Origin: Escherichia coli
GTDB lineage: Bacteria; Pseudomonadota; Gammaproteobacteria; Enterobacterales; Enterobacteriaceae
DNA: 64,000 nucleotides
Reading direction: 5' to 3' (one strand)
Assembly: GCF_030013205.1 (NCBI RefSeq)
Contig: NZ_CP122648.1
The notes below the pieces were generated by a model that was given only the letters and a program-made list of their open reading frames with translations, had not been told where the DNA came from and ran no database searches. This document shows positions 48,648-59,972 of this stretch, piece by piece. The position numbers and the translations under genes are program-made. How positions within the stretch are numbered: position 1 is the first letter of the stretch; each line of letters opens with the position of its first letter.

Positions 48648-49562
48648 TTATTGCGGCCAAAGCTGCTGGTGTAAAGACTCAACGACATCAGCAATACGCG
48701 GACCCATTCCCAGAATCAGGTTTTGATCAACGGTGATAATGCGCTGGTTTTTCCATGCGGCAGTGTGGGTAATTCCGGCAATAGAACGTAGCCGATTAAT
48801 ATCGCCATCGACCATTTGTGAGGTTACGACAATCACTTCTGGATTGGCCGCAATCAGTGATTCTGCACTGTAGCTTTTGTACTGCTGGTGGGTTGCGACG
48901 TTTTCTGCTCCGGCAAGCGAAAGAATGGCGTCCGCGACGCTGCCTTTACCGGCAACTTGTGGCGCACTTCCGCCTGCGGAGAGAATAAACATGGCTTTAA
49001 CCGGGGCTTTTTTGGCCGCCACGTTTTGCTGTACTCGCTCCAGGCGTTGGTTGATCTGTGTCACCAGCGCCTCGCCTTGTTCAGGAACCTGTAGCGTTTT
49101 TGCCAGTTGGCGAATGTTGGCGTACATCTGCTCAAGGGTGGCAGGCACACGCGGCAGGGTAACGACGTTGACTTTCTGCGCCCGTAGTTGGTCGAGCACA
49201 ATTTGCGGTCCAGCATCCTGCCAGGTAATTACGCTATCCGGGCGAAGTGACAAAATGCCTTCGCTGCTGAGTTGTTTCCAGTAGCCAATATGCGGCAGTT
49301 TGGCGGTTTCTGGTGGATAAGATGTCGTTTCATCGACACCAACCACGCGTTCGCCAGCGCCCATCGCGTAGATTAGCTCCGTCAGCGATCCTCCTGCGAC
49401 CACGATACGTTCGGCAGCCGTTACGCTAAAAGCCCAGCTAAGAGCCAGTACTGCCGTAAACAATTTTTTTCGTTTTACCGCGGTCTTCGCGGCAGAGGCC
49501 ACGGCTGAAATACATAACGTTAGTGGGGAAAAAAGAAACGGCCTGGTGATGATCCTTGGCAT
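48648..49562 (-). CDS. chuT: periplasmic haem-binding protein of the ABC system
   Basis: ORF 48648..49640; start placed at the ATG at 49562 (304 aa) because a Fur-box-like sequence at 49587-49606 would otherwise lie inside the coding region; start uncertain. Confidence 0.75.
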   Translation of the reverse strand: MPRIITRPFLFSPLTLCISAVASAAKTAVKRKKLFTAVLALSWAFSVTAAERIVVAGGSLTELIYAMGAGERVVGVDETTSYPPETAKLPHIGYWKQLSSEGILSLRPDSVITWQDAGPQIVLDQLRAQKVNVVTLPRVPATLEQMYANIRQLAKTLQVPEQGEALVTQINQRLERVQQNVAAKKAPVKAMFILSAGGSAPQVAGKGSVADAILSLAGAENVATHQQYKSYSAESLIAANPEVIVVTSQMVDGDINRLRSIAGITHTAAWKNQRIITVDQNLILGMGPRIADVVESLHQQLWPQ

Positions 49563-49586
49563 AATATGAGAACTCTTATCAAATTG

Positions 49587-49606
49587 AGAATGATCATGAT
49601 TATCAT
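49587..49606. promoter_or_regulatory. Fur box upstream of chuT (chuTWXYUV operon)
   Basis: GAATGATCATGATTATCATT resembles the Fur consensus GATAATGATAATCATTATC. Confidence 0.6.
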
Positions 49607-49935
49607 TTGGGTTATATATGAAATACAACCGTCGATTCAATACGTAAGGCGTTACAAGCGTATTTATTTTTGATTTTTATCAAGATGCTTCGTCAGCTAA
49701 CGTTCTTGTTACCGACTAAATTTCAGCGCGGGAAAAAGCTGAGAACCCAGAGATATCAAGGCTTGCAGAGCAAAGCGAAGAGAAAATTATCACTGTTAAC
49801 GACAAAGTTTAGTGATGAGGTCATGGGGGAATAACCATAAAAACAAAGTGGTTTCCAGGGCGCAGGATAAGTTTCATAACCCCCTGTTTATTGTGTTAAT
49901 GGCGGTTAAAAAAAGCTTGATCATAAAAAATTGAT

Positions 49936-49954
49936 CGATAATAATTCTCATTAT
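49936..49954. promoter_or_regulatory. Fur box in the chuT–chuA divergent region (candidate chuA promoter operator)
   Basis: GATAATAATTCTCATTATC, about 290 bp upstream of the chuA ATG. Confidence 0.6.
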
Positions 49955-50244
49955 CACGTTTGCGCTTAACAAAACACGACCATATGGATAACAAAACCAT
50001 AGCATTTGCAAGGGATAACGCACAGCGCTCTTCACTCCTGATGGGGCATATCGTTTTGCCTGACAAAGAGGGCGTGCTTTTGCGTATTTGCCGAGATACC
50101 AGGCAATTTCATGGGATATAAACGCCTGTAAACTCACCCGGCGAATATTATCGCTCTGAATTTTAAATAAATTTATTTTTCGCCAGCCACCCCGGTATTA
50201 ACCCAGGCAGCCAGCATTTTTTATTTTCCTCATGGAGAATCGCT

Positions 50245-52227
50245 ATGTCACGTCCGCAATTTACCTCGTTGCGTTTGAGTTTGTTGGCTTTGGCTGTTTC
50301 TGCCACCTTGCCAACGTTTGCTTTTGCTACTGAAACCATGACCGTTACGGCAACGGGGAATGCCCGTAGTTCCTTCGAAGCGCCTATGATGGTCAGCGTC
50401 ATCGACACTTCCGCTCCTGAAAATCAAACGGCTACTTCAGCCACCGATCTGCTGCGTCATGTTCCTGGAATTACTCTTGATGGTACCGGACGAACCAACG
50501 GTCAGGATGTAAATATGCGTGGCTATGATCATCGCGGCGTGCTGGTTCTTGTCGATGGTGTTCGCCAGGGAACGGATACCGGACACCTGAATGGTACTTT
50601 TCTTGATCCGGCGCTGATCAAGCGTGTTGAGATTGTTCGCGGACCTTCAGCATTACTGTATGGCAGTGGCGCGCTGGGTGGAGTGATCTCCTACGATACG
50701 GTCGATGCAAAAGATTTATTGCAGGAAGGACAAAGTAGTGGTTTTCGTGTCTTTGGTACTGGCGGCACGGGGGACCATAGCCTGGGATTAGGCGCGAGCG
50801 CGTTTGGGCGAACTGAAAATCTGGATGGTATTGTGGCCTGGTCCAGTCGCGATCGGGGTGATTTACGCCAGAGCAATGGTGAAACCGCGCCGAATGACGA
50901 GTCCATTAATAACATGCTGGCGAAAGGGACCTGGCAAATTGATTCAGCCCAGTCTCTGAGCGGTTTAGTGCGTTACTACAACAACGACGCGCGTGAACCA
51001 AAAAATCCGCAGACCGTTGAAGCTTCTGATAGCAGCAACCCGATGGTTGATCGTTCTACAATTCAACGCGATGCGCAGCTTTCTTATAAACTCGCCCCGC
51101 AGGGCAACGACTGGTTAAATGCAGATGCAAAAATTTACTGGTCGGAAGTCCGTATTAATGCGCAAAACACGGGGAGTTCCGGCGAGTATCGTGAACAGAT
51201 AACAAAAGGAGCAAGGCTGGAGAACCGTTCCACTCTATTTGCCGACAGTTTCGCTTCTCACTTACTGACATATGGCGGTGAGTATTATCGTCAGGAACAA
51301 CATCCGGGCGGCGCGACGACGGGCTTCCCGCAAGCAAAAATCGATTTTAGCTCTGGCTGGCTACAGGATGAGATCACCTTACGCGATCTGCCGATTACCC
51401 TGCTTGGCGGAACCCGCTATGACAGTTATCGCGGTAGCAGCGACGGCTACAAAGATGTTGATGCTGACAAATGGTCATCTCGTGCGGGGATGACTATCAA
51501 CCCGACCAACTGGCTGATGTTATTTGGCTCATATGCCCAGGCATTCCGCGCCCCGACGATGGGCGAAATGTATAACGATTCTAAGCACTTCTCGATTGGT
51601 CGCTTCTATACCAACTATTGGGTGCCAAACCCGAACTTACGTCCGGAAACTAACGAAACTCAGGAGTACGGTTTTGGGCTGCGTTTTGATGACCTGATGT
51701 TGTCCAATGATGCCCTGGAATTTAAAGCCAGCTACTTTGATACCAAAGCGAAGGATTACATCTCCACGACCGTCGATTTCGCGGCGGCGACGACTATGTC
51801 GTATAACGTCCCGAACGCCAAAATCTGGGGCTGGGATGTGATGACGAAATATACCACTGATCTGTTTAGCCTTGATGTGGCCTATAACCGAACCCGCGGC
51901 AAAGACACCGATACCGGCGAATATATCTCCAGTATTAACCCGGATACCGTTACCAGTACCCTGAATATTCCGATCGCTCATAGTGGCTTCTCTGTTGGTT
52001 GGGTCGGTACGTTTGCCGATCGCTCAACACATATCAGCAGCAGCTACAGCAAACAACCTGGCTATGGCGTGAATGATTTCTACGTCAGTTATCAAGGACA
52101 ACAGGCGCTCAAAGGCATGACCACTACTTTGGTGTTGGGTAACGCTTTCGACAAAGAGTACTGGTCGCCACAAGGCATCCCACAGGATGGTCGTAATGGA
52201 AAAATTTTCGTGAGTTATCAATGGTAA
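50245..52227 (+). CDS. chuA: TonB-dependent outer-membrane haem/haemoglobin receptor
   Basis: 660 aa; signal peptide; TonB-dependent receptor architecture; C-terminal aromatic residue (...SYQW). Confidence 0.9.
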   Translation: MSRPQFTSLRLSLLALAVSATLPTFAFATETMTVTATGNARSSFEAPMMVSVIDTSAPENQTATSATDLLRHVPGITLDGTGRTNGQDVNMRGYDHRGVLVLVDGVRQGTDTGHLNGTFLDPALIKRVEIVRGPSALLYGSGALGGVISYDTVDAKDLLQEGQSSGFRVFGTGGTGDHSLGLGASAFGRTENLDGIVAWSSRDRGDLRQSNGETAPNDESINNMLAKGTWQIDSAQSLSGLVRYYNNDAREPKNPQTVEASDSSNPMVDRSTIQRDAQLSYKLAPQGNDWLNADAKIYWSEVRINAQNTGSSGEYREQITKGARLENRSTLFADSFASHLLTYGGEYYRQEQHPGGATTGFPQAKIDFSSGWLQDEITLRDLPITLLGGTRYDSYRGSSDGYKDVDADKWSSRAGMTINPTNWLMLFGSYAQAFRAPTMGEMYNDSKHFSIGRFYTNYWVPNPNLRPETNETQEYGFGLRFDDLMLSNDALEFKASYFDTKAKDYISTTVDFAAATTMSYNVPNAKIWGWDVMTKYTTDLFSLDVAYNRTRGKDTDTGEYISSINPDTVTSTLNIPIAHSGFSVGWVGTFADRSTHISSSYSKQPGYGVNDFYVSYQGQQALKGMTTTLVLGNAFDKEYWSPQGIPQDGRNGKIFVSYQW

Positions 52228-52275: not shown

Positions 52276-53304
52276 ATGAACCACTACACACGCTGGCTTG
52301 AGTTAAAAGAACAAAATCCCGGAAAGTACGCGCGTGACATCGCAGGTTTAATGAATATTAGCGAAGCAGAACTGGCATTTGCGCGCGTCACGCACGATGC
52401 GTGGCGGATGTGCGGCGATATCCGTGACATTCTGGCGGCGCTCGAAAGTGTTGGCGAGACCAAATGTATTTGTCGTAATGAATATGCAGTCCATGAGCAA
52501 GTTGGTGCGTTCACAAACCAGCATTTGAACGGACATGCCGGATTGATCCTCAATCCGCGCGCGCTGGATTTGCGTCTGTTTCTCAATCAATGGGCCAGTG
52601 TTTTTCACATTAAAGAAAATACGACTCGTGGCGAACGCCAGAGTATTCAGTTCTTTGATCATCAGGGCGATGCATTACTAAAAGTTTATGCCACCGACAA
52701 TACCGATATGGCGGCATGGAGTGAGCTTCTGGCACGGTTTATCACCGATGAGAATACGTCGCTTGAGTTAAAAGCCGTTGATGCGCCAGTTGTTCAAACG
52801 CGAGCCGATGCCAGTGTGGTCGAGCAAGAGTGGCGGGCGATGACCGACGTTCATCAGTTTTTTACGTTGCTCAAGCGCCACAACCTGACGCGCCAACAGG
52901 CGTTCAATCTGGTGGCAGATGATTTGGCCTGCAAAGTATCCAACAGTGCGTTGGCGCAAATTCTTGAATCTGCACAGCAGGATGGCAATGAAATCATGGT
53001 GTTTGTTGGCAACCGTGGCTGCGTACAGATTTTCACCGGTGTGGTAGAAAAAGTGGTGCCAATGAAAGGTTGGCTGAATATTTTTAACCCGACGTTTACT
53101 CTTCATCTATTAGAAGAGAGCATTGCTGAAACCTGGGTAACCCGTAAACCTGCTAGTGACGGTTATGTGACCAGTCTGGAATTGTTTGCCCATGATGGTA
53201 CGCAGATAGCGCAACTTTATGGTCAACGTACAGAAGGCGAACAGGAGCAAGCGCAATGGCGTAAGCAAATTGCTTCGCTGATACCGGAAGGCGTTACTGC
53301 ATAA
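52276..53304 (+). CDS. chuS: cytoplasmic haem-degrading / haem-trafficking protein
   Basis: 342-aa ORF immediately downstream of chuA. Confidence 0.85.
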   Translation: MNHYTRWLELKEQNPGKYARDIAGLMNISEAELAFARVTHDAWRMCGDIRDILAALESVGETKCICRNEYAVHEQVGAFTNQHLNGHAGLILNPRALDLRLFLNQWASVFHIKENTTRGERQSIQFFDHQGDALLKVYATDNTDMAAWSELLARFITDENTSLELKAVDAPVVQTRADASVVEQEWRAMTDVHQFFTLLKRHNLTRQQAFNLVADDLACKVSNSALAQILESAQQDGNEIMVFVGNRGCVQIFTGVVEKVVPMKGWLNIFNPTFTLHLLEESIAETWVTRKPASDGYVTSLELFAHDGTQIAQLYGQRTEGEQEQAQWRKQIASLIPEGVTA

Positions 53305-58628: not shown

Positions 58629-59918
58629 TTACAAAGTGAAAGAGAGACGTAGCGCCAGCGCAGCCAGCGTCACAAACAGCACCGGCAGGGTCATGATAAT
58701 CCCTGTACGGAAGTAATATCCCCAGCTGATAGTTATATTCTTCTGCGAAAGTACGTGCAGCCATAGTAGCGTTGCCAGGCTACCAATCGGGGTAATTTTC
58801 GGCCCCAAATCGCAGCCAATTACGTTGGCATAAACCATCGCTTCTTTGATAACGCCAGATGCCGTGCTGCCATCAATGGACAACGCGCCAACCAGTACCG
58901 TCGGCATATTGTTCATAATAGAAGAGAGGAAGGCGGTGAGGAATCCGGTGCCGAGCGTCGCGGCCCACAGGCCATTATCCGCCAGCACGTTGAGTACGCC
59001 AGAAAGATATTCCGTTAGTCCGGCATTGCGCAGGCCATAAACCACCAGATACATGCCGAGCGAGAAGATGACAATCTGCCAGGGCGCACCGCGCAGGACT
59101 TTACCCGTATTAATTGCATGACCGCGTTTAGCGACGGCAAATAATATCAGCGCGCCCACTGCCGCAATGGCGCTGACCGGAATGCCGAGCGGTTCCAGGA
59201 CGAAAAATCCCACCAGCAGAAACAGTAAAACAACCCAGCCAGTTTTGAAGGTGGCAGGATCTTTAATCGCTTCTGCGGGAGATTTCAGCAGCGCCATATC
59301 GTAGTTCTGCGGAATATCTTTGCGGAAATAGAGATGCAACATCACCAGCGTGGCAACAATCGCGGCGATATCCACCGGCACCATCACCGAGGCATATTCG
59401 CGAAAGCCGAGGCCAAAGAAATCTGCGGAAACGATATTCACCAGGTTGGAGACAATAAGCGGCAGGCTGGCGGTATCGGCAATGAACCCGGCCGCCATCA
59501 CGAACGCAAGCGTCGTGCCTTTACTGAACCCTAAAGCCAGCAGCATGGCGATGACAATCGGTGTCAAAATAAGCGCCGCGCCATCATTGGCAAACAGAGC
59601 TGCAACGGCAGCACCGAGCAGGACAATCCAGGTAAACAGCAAGCGACCGCGTCCATTGCCCCAGCGTGAGACGTGCAGCGCCGCCCATTCAAAAAAGCCG
59701 GACTCATCCAGCAGCAGGCTGATGATAATGACGGCAATAAACGCCGCCGTCGCGTTCCAGACGATATTCCACACCACCGGAATATCACCCGGATGTACCA
59801 CGCCCGTAACTAACGCCAGTACTGCGCCAAGCGTTGCACTCCAGCCGATGCCTAAACCTTTCGGCTGCCAGATAACCAATACGATGGTCAGGACAAAGAT
59901 AGCGCCTGCCAGTAACAT
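58629..59918 (-). CDS. arsB: arsenite/antimonite efflux pump
   Basis: 429-aa product from the internal ATG ([10 protein letters not shown]...) within ORF 58629..59939. Confidence 0.9.
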
Positions 59919-59972
59919 AATGCCTCCCGGAAAAAACACATGTGAAAATCCATATGTGTTTAGATAAATTTT

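Follow-up and report, generated by a model that had tools for sequence, protein, structure and literature searches.

The 32 nucleotides at positions 50216-50247 (plus strand) of the window, the whole 64-kb stretch of Escherichia coli DNA analysed here, are with high probability (about 0.93) the published shuA/chuA FourU RNA thermometer, which lies 3'-terminally in the 291-nt chuA leader, itself controlled by Fur. Through this element, pathogenic E. coli and Shigella tie synthesis of the haem receptor to the temperature of the host. The thermometer is already known and its identification holds nothing new; as a textbook virulence-associated RNA thermometer, its presence in the window represents correct annotation and no discovery.

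Identity and structure of the chuA leader element

The stretch matches Rfam family RF02597 ('shuA/chuA 5' UTR thermoregulator') with 60.1 bits (gathering score 58; E = 2.7e-9), untruncated over model positions 1-32 of 32 and identical to the consensus at 32/32 nucleotides. The match corresponds to nt -29 to +3 of Kouse et al. and includes, and ends at, the chuA ATG (50245-50247), immediately 5' of the coding sequence. Sequence (32/32 nt), position, the 7-bp stem with UUUU opposite the Shine-Dalgarno sequence and the long Fur-regulated leader are all shared with the described thermoregulator, and the element itself shows no difference in the window. A match to the Rfam FourU family is absent from the window even at E values up to 10; sub-threshold matches to further families (Hammerhead_HH9, E = 0.074, and others) were dismissed as chance.

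A preliminary description of this DNA had noticed a U-rich tract before the chuA Shine-Dalgarno sequence and proposed a FourU-type thermometer. The tract is indeed present at 50217-50247 (TTTTTTATTTTCCTCATGGAGAATCGCTATG), with the ATG at 50245 opening chuA, and the proposal is supported by the RF02597 match and by published work on the same nucleotides. On the plus strand, a U6 run (50217-50222) is followed by A (50223), UUUU (50224-50227), CC (50228-50229) and, further downstream, the Shine-Dalgarno GGAG (50234-50237). In the Rfam consensus structure and in the minimum free energy (MFE) structure at 15-50 °C, the 5' arm AUUUUCC (50223-50229), the anti-Shine-Dalgarno strand, pairs across the loop UCAU (50230-50233) with the 3' arm GGAGAAU (50234-50240) that holds GGAG. 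The 7 bp are C50229-G50234, C50228-G50235, U50227-A50236, U50226·G50237, U50225-A50238, U50224-A50239 and A50223-U50240, that is 4 A-U, 1 U·G and 2 G-C pairs. The earlier suggestion that runs of at least four U could pair with GGAG thus holds for the proximal run, as in the predicted fold the four consecutive U of 50224-50227 pair with A50239, A50238, G50237 and A50236 of the Shine-Dalgarno region and the adjoining CC with GG, but not for the U6 run, which lies outside the validated stem.

This 7-bp stem with its UCAU loop is both the MFE and the centroid structure of the 32-mer, and its pair probability is 0.86-0.98 in seven of eight sequence contexts (the 32-nt, 87-nt, 120-nt, ~300-nt and 447-nt ones among them). 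In the full leader at 25-37 °C, pair probabilities range from 0.75 to 0.99, with the terminal A-U pair lowest and the other six at least 0.89; in one short context a register-shifted alternative helix competes (P = 0.28-0.46). At an MFE of -6.1 kcal/mol, the 32-nt hairpin scores z = -2.83, and 5 of 200 shuffled sequences equal or surpass its stability, so that folding alone makes only a moderate case.

Identity to the family consensus together with conservation is the decisive evidence beyond chance. In 2,200 of the 2,236 chuA-positive genomes, positions 50186-50265 (80 nt) show at least 99% identity, the label chuA (TonB-dependent heme/hemoglobin receptor ChuA/ShuA) being carried by the open reading frame in 2,236 of 5,426 complete E. 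coli genomes. Between alleles, the last 84 nt of the UTR (+208 to +291) are 98.8-100% identical, and the two main alleles show just 74% identity over +1 to +207. Upstream of +208, the window leader is 96.6% identical to the allele of the cattle isolate F1 E4 and differs by 26% from a second, ~88%-identity allele group (L003, strain SCU-301). A 48-nt leader deletion is a singleton, since the query with the intact leader is covered to 80% or more in 2,235 of the 2,236 genomes.

The regulated gene chuA (50245-52227, plus strand) is a 660-aa open reading frame, with chuS (52276-53304) downstream. Its 5' UTR is placed at 49954-50244 (plus strand, 291 nt) by homology to EHEC Sakai, where dRNA-seq mapped the +1 site 291 nt 5' of the ATG (Sy and Tree, 2022, PMC9002310); between the mapped +1 and the ATG the window has no indel relative to the F1 E4 allele. 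The long leader that had been predicted, with a start near 49960, is thus supported, and by this homology its start would lie at about 49954. A promoter-like site on the plus strand at 49917-49945 (-35 TTGATC at 49917-49922, 17-nt spacer, -10 AATAAT at 49940-49945) has 9/12 consensus matches in a consensus scan and agrees in position with the EHEC-mapped transcription start, and probably functions as the chuA promoter. Overlapping its -10 hexamer and the transcription start is a Fur box (GATAATAATTCTCATTATC, 49937-49955, no strand assigned) with 2-3 mismatches to the consensus GATAATGATAATCATTATC, one of only two Fur-box-like sites in the 64-kb window, where 0.01 would be expected by chance. 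Repression of chuA/shuA by Fur is cited by Sy and Tree and by Kouse et al. (PMC9002310; PMC3660397).

Published experiments and temperature dependence

For the response to temperature, its post-transcriptional character and the effects of the mutations, the literature is the source. Kouse et al. (2013; PLoS One 8:e63781, PMC3660397) showed thermoregulation in Shigella dysenteriae shuA and in UPEC chuA itself, so that the analogy to the shuA leader drawn previously was right but too narrow. In their experiments, nt -29 to +3 are enough to thermoregulate a reporter with the mRNA level unchanged; expression at 37 °C drops with U-19C, which stabilizes the stem, and expression at 25 °C rises with C-17A and U-19A, which destabilize it. 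They describe complete conservation of the element among EHEC, EPEC, UPEC, NMEC and ExPEC. In the window, U-19C/A correspond to U50226 and C-17A to C50228. The thermometer was confirmed in EHEC, where U273A, which falls on U50226 as well (mapped via the primer CCAGGCAGCCAGCATTTTTTATTATCC), led to a 2.6-fold increase at 25 °C (PMC9002310). The published effects are modest in size (~2.6-fold). Direct demonstration of melting for shuA/chuA by probing, NMR or toeprinting is not reported in the available text of PMC3660397.

The strain analysed here would be expected to behave like the tested ones, as it has the identical sequence throughout the element that was tested. At ~25 °C, AUUUUCC (50223-50229) would pair with GGAGAAU (50234-50240) into the 7-bp hairpin with loop UCAU and hide GGAG, and with the Shine-Dalgarno sequence buried 30S subunits would be unable to bind. 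A stem of four A-U, one U·G and two G-C pairs would open at 37 °C often enough to permit translation of the haem receptor. Jointly, Fur and the thermometer would restrict ChuA production to iron-poor and warm conditions, as in the host.

Folding at 25 versus 37 °C had been suggested as a check: the Shine-Dalgarno sequence is paired at 25 °C and also at 37 and 42 °C, and only the stem energy weakens (ΔG -8.4 kcal/mol at 25 °C, -6.1 at 37 °C and -5.1 at 42 °C). As the Shine-Dalgarno pairing probability computed with ViennaRNA is at least 0.98 at all three temperatures in every context folded, the check cannot discriminate; with an in silico melting midpoint of ~80 °C, the nearest-neighbour model fails to reproduce melting. 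The predicted stabilities of the mutants at 37 °C (U50226C -8.7, wild type -6.1, U50226A -2.5 and C50228A -1.7 kcal/mol) follow the order of the published phenotypes, and the mutated bases are all in the stem.

The CyaR site and a candidate extended helix

Upstream of the hairpin, the pairing site of the sRNA CyaR (50203-50220, plus strand) holds the conserved motif AGGCAGCCAGC (50205-50215) and ends in the U6 run. The best short duplex, obtained from a 22-nt sliding-window scan, as RNAduplex of full-length CyaR versus the whole leader gives meaningless long duplexes, joins CyaR nt 19-40 with leader 50202-50221 (-18.1 kcal/mol) and includes the pair G50214-C26. The published compensatory mutants chuA G298C (CAGCCAGCA to CAGCCACCA) and CyaR C27G (PMC9002310) represent exactly this predicted pair, and the identity of CyaR was verified by Rfam RF00112. 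Of 32 haem-receptor leaders from 10 genera, 31 carry the motif AGGCAGCCAGC unchanged, and that of E. albertii has one C-to-U change. A literature search linking CyaR to hemR, hmuR or hasR found no link.

The location of this site bears on a reading, in our estimate improbable, in which a register-shifted larger helix replaces or joins the 7-bp hairpin as the repressor and would be opened by CyaR binding at 50203-50220. In this extended helix the U6 run (50217-50222) would become the anti-Shine-Dalgarno strand and pair with GGAGAA, AGC (50213-50215) with GCU (50242-50244) and GGCA (50206-50209) with UGUC (50246-50249), burying both Shine-Dalgarno sequence and AUG. The CyaR site as defined by experiment serves as its 5' arm, the -40 to +6 segment adopts it as MFE structure (-9.6 kcal/mol at 37 °C), and an equivalent helix reaches -13 to -18 kcal/mol in Enterobacter, Lelliottia, Cedecea, Atlantibacter and Buttiauxella A111. 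With the window sequence, however, seven of eight contexts, the full leader and the extents of the published reporters among them, give this helix a pair probability of 0.11 or less.

RNAalifold on 11 Enterobacteriaceae leaders chooses the extended-helix register, in which 86.9% of the cells are paired compared with at most 50% in slid controls, and one of its pairs covaries (U-A, C-G and A-U at columns 16-39). But the covariation amounts to ~3 cells from few independent lineages, and the published register fits the alignment equally well with 89.9% of cells paired. In the 86.9% count for the extended helix the outer helices are penalized, as the start codons of Cedecea and Buttiauxella are out of register in the MAFFT alignment A2.

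Of the mutational data, activation by CyaR is kept, and is larger, in U273A (1.6-fold versus 1.3-fold; PMC9002310), a mutation that the extended helix would survive as U50226 lies in its loop, and C50228A folds into the extended register at 25 °C in silico. Sy and Tree state that there must be an additional element of repression, which CyaR overcomes (PMC9002310). On the other hand, U-19C, U-19A and C-17A, all in the extended-helix loop, should be silent if this helix were the repressor, yet they change expression (PMC3660397; PMC9002310), and the 32-nt construct is sufficient for thermoregulation although it lacks the outer helices (PMC3660397).

The 7-bp hairpin is preferred as the thermometer, and the extended helix enters a speculative lead that we consider improbable as a whole. 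In this lead, the last ~45 nt of the leader would hold two mutually exclusive helices sequestering the Shine-Dalgarno sequence, the FourU hairpin and an older extended helix that buries the AUG and whose 5' arm AGGCAGCCAGC, essentially invariant across Enterobacterales, is the CyaR site. CyaR would then activate by an anti-antisense mechanism on the extended helix, which would be the additional repressive element of Sy and Tree. The lead also comprises FourU-type (CUUUUC/GGAGAG) elements, undescribed and undetected by RF02597, in the chuA/hemR orthologues of Kluyvera, Enterobacter, Lelliottia, Citrobacter, Cedecea, Buttiauxella and Atlantibacter, and in orthologues of other genera the extended helix is predicted to be dominant. 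A CyaR site and a helix sequestering Shine-Dalgarno sequence and AUG appear to be conserved in the haem-receptor leaders of several genera; if confirmed, this could explain the activation of chuA by CyaR, and the thermometer family would no longer be confined to Escherichia and Shigella.

In all 11 Enterobacteriaceae orthologues, the Shine-Dalgarno sequence is predicted to be paired (P at least 0.83) with a U-rich pyrimidine strand. The Shine-Dalgarno sequences of Yersinia and Serratia are ~50-80% paired in the folds with no consistent U4 partner. At the gathering threshold, RF02597 matched in Escherichia only among 15 orthologous loci, a result uninformative on the relatives as the threshold in effect demands near-identity.

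Transcriptional readings, background frequency and related thermometers

It is very unlikely that the U-rich tract and hairpin serve mainly transcription elongation or termination (Rho-dependent leader 3' ends) or repressing sRNAs (RyhB, Esr41), with temperature sensing as a secondary function. Term-seq 3' ends at +271 and +297 of the EHEC leader do fall on 50224 and 50250 of the window, and read-through upon bicyclomycin peaks at +267-273 (PMC9002310). However, the Rho effect is ~1.4-fold and depends not on the hairpin but on the upstream leader segment 50131-50169 (plus strand). This segment, a literature assignment only, lies between the published truncations T3 (-114) and T4 (-75), whose primer sequences in the supplement were mapped onto the window; when it is removed, expression increases 9-fold and the response to bicyclomycin (Rho) disappears (PMC9002310). 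The thermometer effect, by contrast, leaves the mRNA level unchanged and occurs also with heterologous promoters and the 32-nt insert (PMC3660397). The Rho and sRNA functions are layered on the thermometer and not alternatives to it, as the authors likewise conclude (PMC9002310). In the window itself, a minus-strand promoter-like match (50251-50223) and terminator-like leader sites are within or near shuffle expectation (3 versus 2.1±1.4 and 3 versus 0.6±0.8).

The pairing pattern alone is not rare, as arsB also has a U-run opposite its ribosome binding site. At least four consecutive U are paired opposite this region in 2 (chuA and arsB) of 50 annotated genes of a homologous 64-kb region, counted on the own sequence and gene starts of NZ_CP062824.1, with which the window is not collinear as indels shift the coordinates. 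Among these 50 genes, chuA ranks 7th by MFE and 1st by pairing probability over -14 to -5. The leader of Yersinia enterocolitica hemR1, which precedes the orthologous haem-receptor gene, shares a U-run predicted to pair with GGAGAA, the upstream motif AGGCAGCCAGC and the downstream GGAGAAUUGC, but differs in that experiments found no thermoregulation (PMC6158557), and a FourU-like motif alone is therefore no proof of function. That an AU-rich leader merely happens to provide U-runs complementary to a purine-rich Shine-Dalgarno sequence, with no regulatory role in this strain, as a folding z-score of just -2.83, the comparable arsB hairpin and the non-thermoregulated FourU-like hairpin of hemR1 (PMC6158557) might suggest, is next to negligible in probability given a sequence that is identical to the experimentally validated element and near-invariant across 2,236 genomes, whereas the adjacent leader diverges by 26%.

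The agsA FourU thermometer of Salmonella is reportedly the founding member of the FourU class, as ascribed to Waldminghaus and co-workers in 2007. With chuA it shares the principle of four consecutive U pairing with the Shine-Dalgarno sequence in a short weak hairpin that opens as the temperature rises, but the two have unrelated sequences and genes, agsA being a heat-shock gene and chuA that of a haem receptor, and, unlike agsA, the chuA hairpin terminates a 291-nt multi-input leader. In the chuA experiments agsA was the positive control (PMC3660397).

The window contains a second RNA thermometer, the shuT/chuT element of Wei et al. (2017; PMC5458455), located on the minus strand at 49563-49604. 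It shares the locus and the logic of Fur plus temperature with chuA, but its entire 42-nt UTR is a single hsp17-like hairpin and, as it lacks a U4 run opposite the Shine-Dalgarno sequence, it belongs to a different thermometer class. For this neighbouring shuT element, structure probing at several temperatures has been reported (PMC5458455).

Identity and published function of the element before chuA

The sequence immediately upstream of chuA is confirmed as it stood in the preliminary description (50217-50247, TTTTTTATTTTCCTCATGGAGAATCGCTATG), and its interpretation as a FourU-type RNA thermometer is supported by a family match as well as by published experiments. In a scan against all Rfam families, the sole significant match within 49000-51000 is RF02597, the 'shuA/chuA 5' UTR thermoregulator', at 50216-50247 on the plus strand (60.1 bits, gathering score 58), covering model positions 1-32 of 32 and identical to the consensus at every position. 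The consensus structure is a stem of 7 bp, in which AUUUUCC (50223-29) pairs with GGAGAAU (50234-40) around the loop UCAU. A U-run does face the Shine-Dalgarno sequence (SD), as had been proposed, but the choice of run has to be corrected, the proximal UUUU of AUUUUCC being the one that pairs.

The proposed analogy with shuA also holds, except that chuA itself had already been tested experimentally. Kouse et al. (2013; PMC3660397) report more ShuA and more reporter protein at 37 than at 25 °C without a rise in mRNA, and show that nucleotides -29 to +3 are sufficient for thermoregulation. According to the same source, the stem-stabilising U-19C lowers expression at 37 °C, the destabilising C-17A and U-19A increase it at 25 °C, uropathogenic E. 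coli chuA behaves as shuA does and the element is 'completely conserved' in EHEC, EPEC, UPEC, NMEC and ExPEC (PMC3660397). The destabilising mutation was redone in EHEC, where U273A gave a 2.6-fold increase at 25 °C (Sy & Tree 2022; PMC9002310). The mutagenesis primer CCAGGCAGCCAGCATTTTTTATTATCCTCATGGAGA (PMC9002310) places U273A, the equivalent of U-19A, at U50226, which forms a U·G pair with G50237, while C-17 is C50228 with G50235 as partner. The element at 50216-50247 is already known.

Predicted folding and conservation in E. coli

The published hairpin is predicted for the isolated 32-mer at all temperatures from 15 to 50 °C, with a ΔG of -8.4, -6.1 and -5.1 kcal/mol at 25, 37 and 42 °C, respectively, and a z-score of -2.83 versus dinucleotide shuffles (5 of 200 as stable). 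The mean probability of the seven stem pairs is 0.86-0.98 in seven of eight sequence contexts, the contexts including 32 nt, 87 nt, 120 nt, the full leader (297-336 nt) and 447 nt. Predicted ΔG values at 37 °C are -8.7 (U50226C), -6.1 (wild type), -2.5 (U50226A) and -1.7 kcal/mol (C50228A), and the rank of these modelled stabilities is the rank of the published phenotypes. The nearest-neighbour model leaves the SD at least 98% paired whether at 25, 37 or 42 °C and puts the in silico midpoint at approximately 80 °C. Folding at 25 and 37 °C, suggested in the preliminary description as a check, thus finds the SD paired at low temperature but no opening at 37 °C and cannot discriminate a thermometer. 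Such in silico folding is uninformative about the temperature response, which, as the model shows no opening at 37 °C, rests on the published experiments.

At least four consecutive paired U facing the ribosome binding site (RBS) region are found in two of 50 annotated genes, chuA and arsB, in -29..+3 folds across the homologous 64-kb region, where chuA ranks 7th by minimum free energy (MFE) and 1st by pairing probability. The U-run pattern by itself gives modest support, and conservation is the stronger argument against chance. A 660-bp query spanning the intergenic region and the ORF start is present in 2,236 of 5,426 complete E. coli genomes (top match E. coli O169:H41, 100% identical); in 2,200 of these chuA-positive genomes, identity over the 80 nt at 50186-50265 is 99% or higher. 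Compared with the second leader allele group, represented by strain SCU-301, identity of the window allele is 74% over UTR positions +1..+207 (49954-50160) versus 98.8% over +208..+291 (50161-50244), with the same ChuA protein accession in both backgrounds. Divergence is mosaic, 49954-50160 versus 50161-50700, with 98.5-98.8% identity through the final 84 nt of the UTR and the first 152 codons; on sequence comparison this suggests recombination, or else selection on the upstream leader that is relaxed or diversifying.

Relatives, the CyaR site and a possible alternative helix

A DNA-pattern scan for the receptor motif GN[AE]RSSFEAPMMV with one genome per species recovered 32 loci in Escherichia, Kluyvera, Enterobacter, Lelliottia, Citrobacter, Cedecea, Buttiauxella, Atlantibacter, Yersinia and Serratia. 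The other four Escherichia loci, E. albertii among them, all have the identical hairpin, and RF02597 matches at gathering threshold in Escherichia loci only, with no match in the loci of other genera tested. In 11 of 11 distinct Enterobacteriaceae leaders the SD is predicted to pair, at a P of 0.83 or more, with a pyrimidine strand rich in U, the partner being the proximal run (UUUUCC or AUUUUC) in Escherichia, Cedecea and Buttiauxella, the distal CUUUUC in Kluyvera, Enterobacter, MGYG110 and C. koseri, and the distal CUUUCC, a three-U run, in Atlantibacter and Lelliottia. Folds of the Yersinia and Serratia leaders leave the SD only ~50-80% paired without a consistent U4 partner, and this weak predicted pairing fits the report that a FourU-like hairpin of Y. 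enterocolitica hemR1 confers no thermoregulation (PMC6158557). In Citrobacter koseri NCTC10786, only a TTG start puts the chuA-like ORF in frame with the receptor motif; the ATG aligned with the start codons of other species belongs to another reading frame, which suggests a frameshift, a pseudogene or faulty assembly close to the 5' end.

Just 5' of the U-runs, AGGCAGCCAGC (50205-50215) is invariant in 31 of the 32 haem-receptor leaders, across 10 genera including Yersinia and Serratia, the sole exception being E. albertii, with a single C-to-U change. The motif coincides with the site at which the sRNA CyaR was shown experimentally to pair with EHEC chuA; the literature yielded no paper on conservation of the motif outside E. 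coli. The CyaR site lies at 50203-50220 on the plus strand, as located by the published site and a duplex search. The best duplex in the sliding-window search joins CyaR nt 19-40 (identity verified by Rfam RF00112) to leader 50202-50221 at -18.1 kcal/mol and includes G50214-C26, exactly the published compensatory pair chuA G298C / CyaR C27G (PMC9002310). A second exact copy of AGGCAGCCAGC at 15421-15431 (minus strand; two copies in the window versus 0.01 expected by chance) probably falls in a coding region and is coincidental.

For the -40..+6 segment the MFE structure is not the published hairpin but a register-shifted extended helix (-9.6 kcal/mol at 37 °C), pairing the U6 run 50217-22 with GGAGAA, AGC 50213-15 with GCU 50242-44, and GGCA 50206-09 with UGUC 50246-49, thereby covering the UG of the start codon. 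Equivalent helices reach -13 to -18 kcal/mol in Enterobacter, Lelliottia, Cedecea, Atlantibacter and Buttiauxella A111, and the extended register is the RNAalifold choice on 11 leaders. In this alignment 86.9% of cells are paired in the extended register (at most 50% in slid controls; one covarying pair) and 89.9% in the published one (at most 73.9%; no covariation); therefore both are compatible with the alignment. In every longer context, the extended form of the window sequence is predicted with a probability of 0.11 or less, and the published mutants at U50226 and C50228 fall at loop positions of the extended helix and would be silent there; thus the published hairpin is the primary structure in E. 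coli. Sy & Tree left the mechanism of CyaR activation unexplained and concluded that another repressive element must exist (PMC9002310). As the CyaR site is the 5' arm of the extended helix, the idea that CyaR opens this helix merits direct testing, although it seems unlikely.

Anatomy of the leader and neighbouring elements

The 660-aa ORF (50245..52227) starts at ATG 50245 and is annotated as chuA (TonB-dependent heme/hemoglobin receptor ChuA/ShuA) in all 2,236 matching genomes. The surrounding chu locus is standard, with chuT, chuW, chuX, chuY, chuU and chuV divergent on the minus strand and chuS downstream of chuA. Of the only two Fur-box matches in 64 kb, where chance would give 0.01, one (49937-49955) overlaps both the -10 hexamer of chuA and its transcription start, and the other (49586-49604) is located at the start of chuT. 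A promoter-like pair of hexamers, TTGATC and AATAAT with 17 nt between them, spans 49917-49945. According to dRNA-seq, the EHEC chuA transcript begins 291 nt before the ATG (Sy & Tree 2022; PMC9002310); by homology this start maps to 49954, as the window and the allele of the cattle isolate F1 E4 differ by no indels between start and ATG. The primer sequences (PMC9002310) place the truncation points T3 (-114) and T4 (-75) at 50131 and 50170, between which lies a strongly repressive, Rho-related region (PMC9002310).

At the 5' end of the UTR, an A-rich imperfect direct repeat (49967-50008; TAACAAAACACGACCATATG and TAACAAAACCATAGCATTTG, 75% identical, 22 nt apart) sits where Sy & Tree put most (ARN)4 Hfq-binding motifs (PMC9002310). 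One of the 2,236 genomes, E. coli O16:H6 CU37RT-2 (NZ_CP082774.1), carries a 48-nt deletion between two direct copies of TTTATTTT (window equivalent 50172-50219), losing the CyaR site and the U6 run and keeping the FourU hairpin; its additional U50240 to C substitution disrupts the A-U pair that closes the stem, for a predicted ΔG of -5.1 versus -6.1 kcal/mol at 37 °C. In E. coli NZ_AP022044.1, the chuT-chuA intergenic query matched at two separate places, the best covering 51%, which suggests an insertion or rearrangement within the chuA leader.

The 42-nt leader (49563-49604) of chuT (48648..49562, minus strand), which overlaps the Fur box 49586-49604, folds into a single hairpin over the RBS (-5.8 kcal/mol, z = -0.12). 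This hairpin is the counterpart of the hsp17-like RNA thermometer published for shuT (Wei et al. 2017; PMC5458455), so that two known thermometers, each of a different class, are present in the window. At 59916-59939 on the minus strand, GUGUUUUUUCCGGGAGGCAUUAUG precedes the translation start of arsB; a U-run and a C are predicted to pair there with the SD GGGAGG (-4.4 kcal/mol at 37 °C), by which arsB is the only gene besides chuA with a predicted FourU-like arrangement among the 50 in the region.
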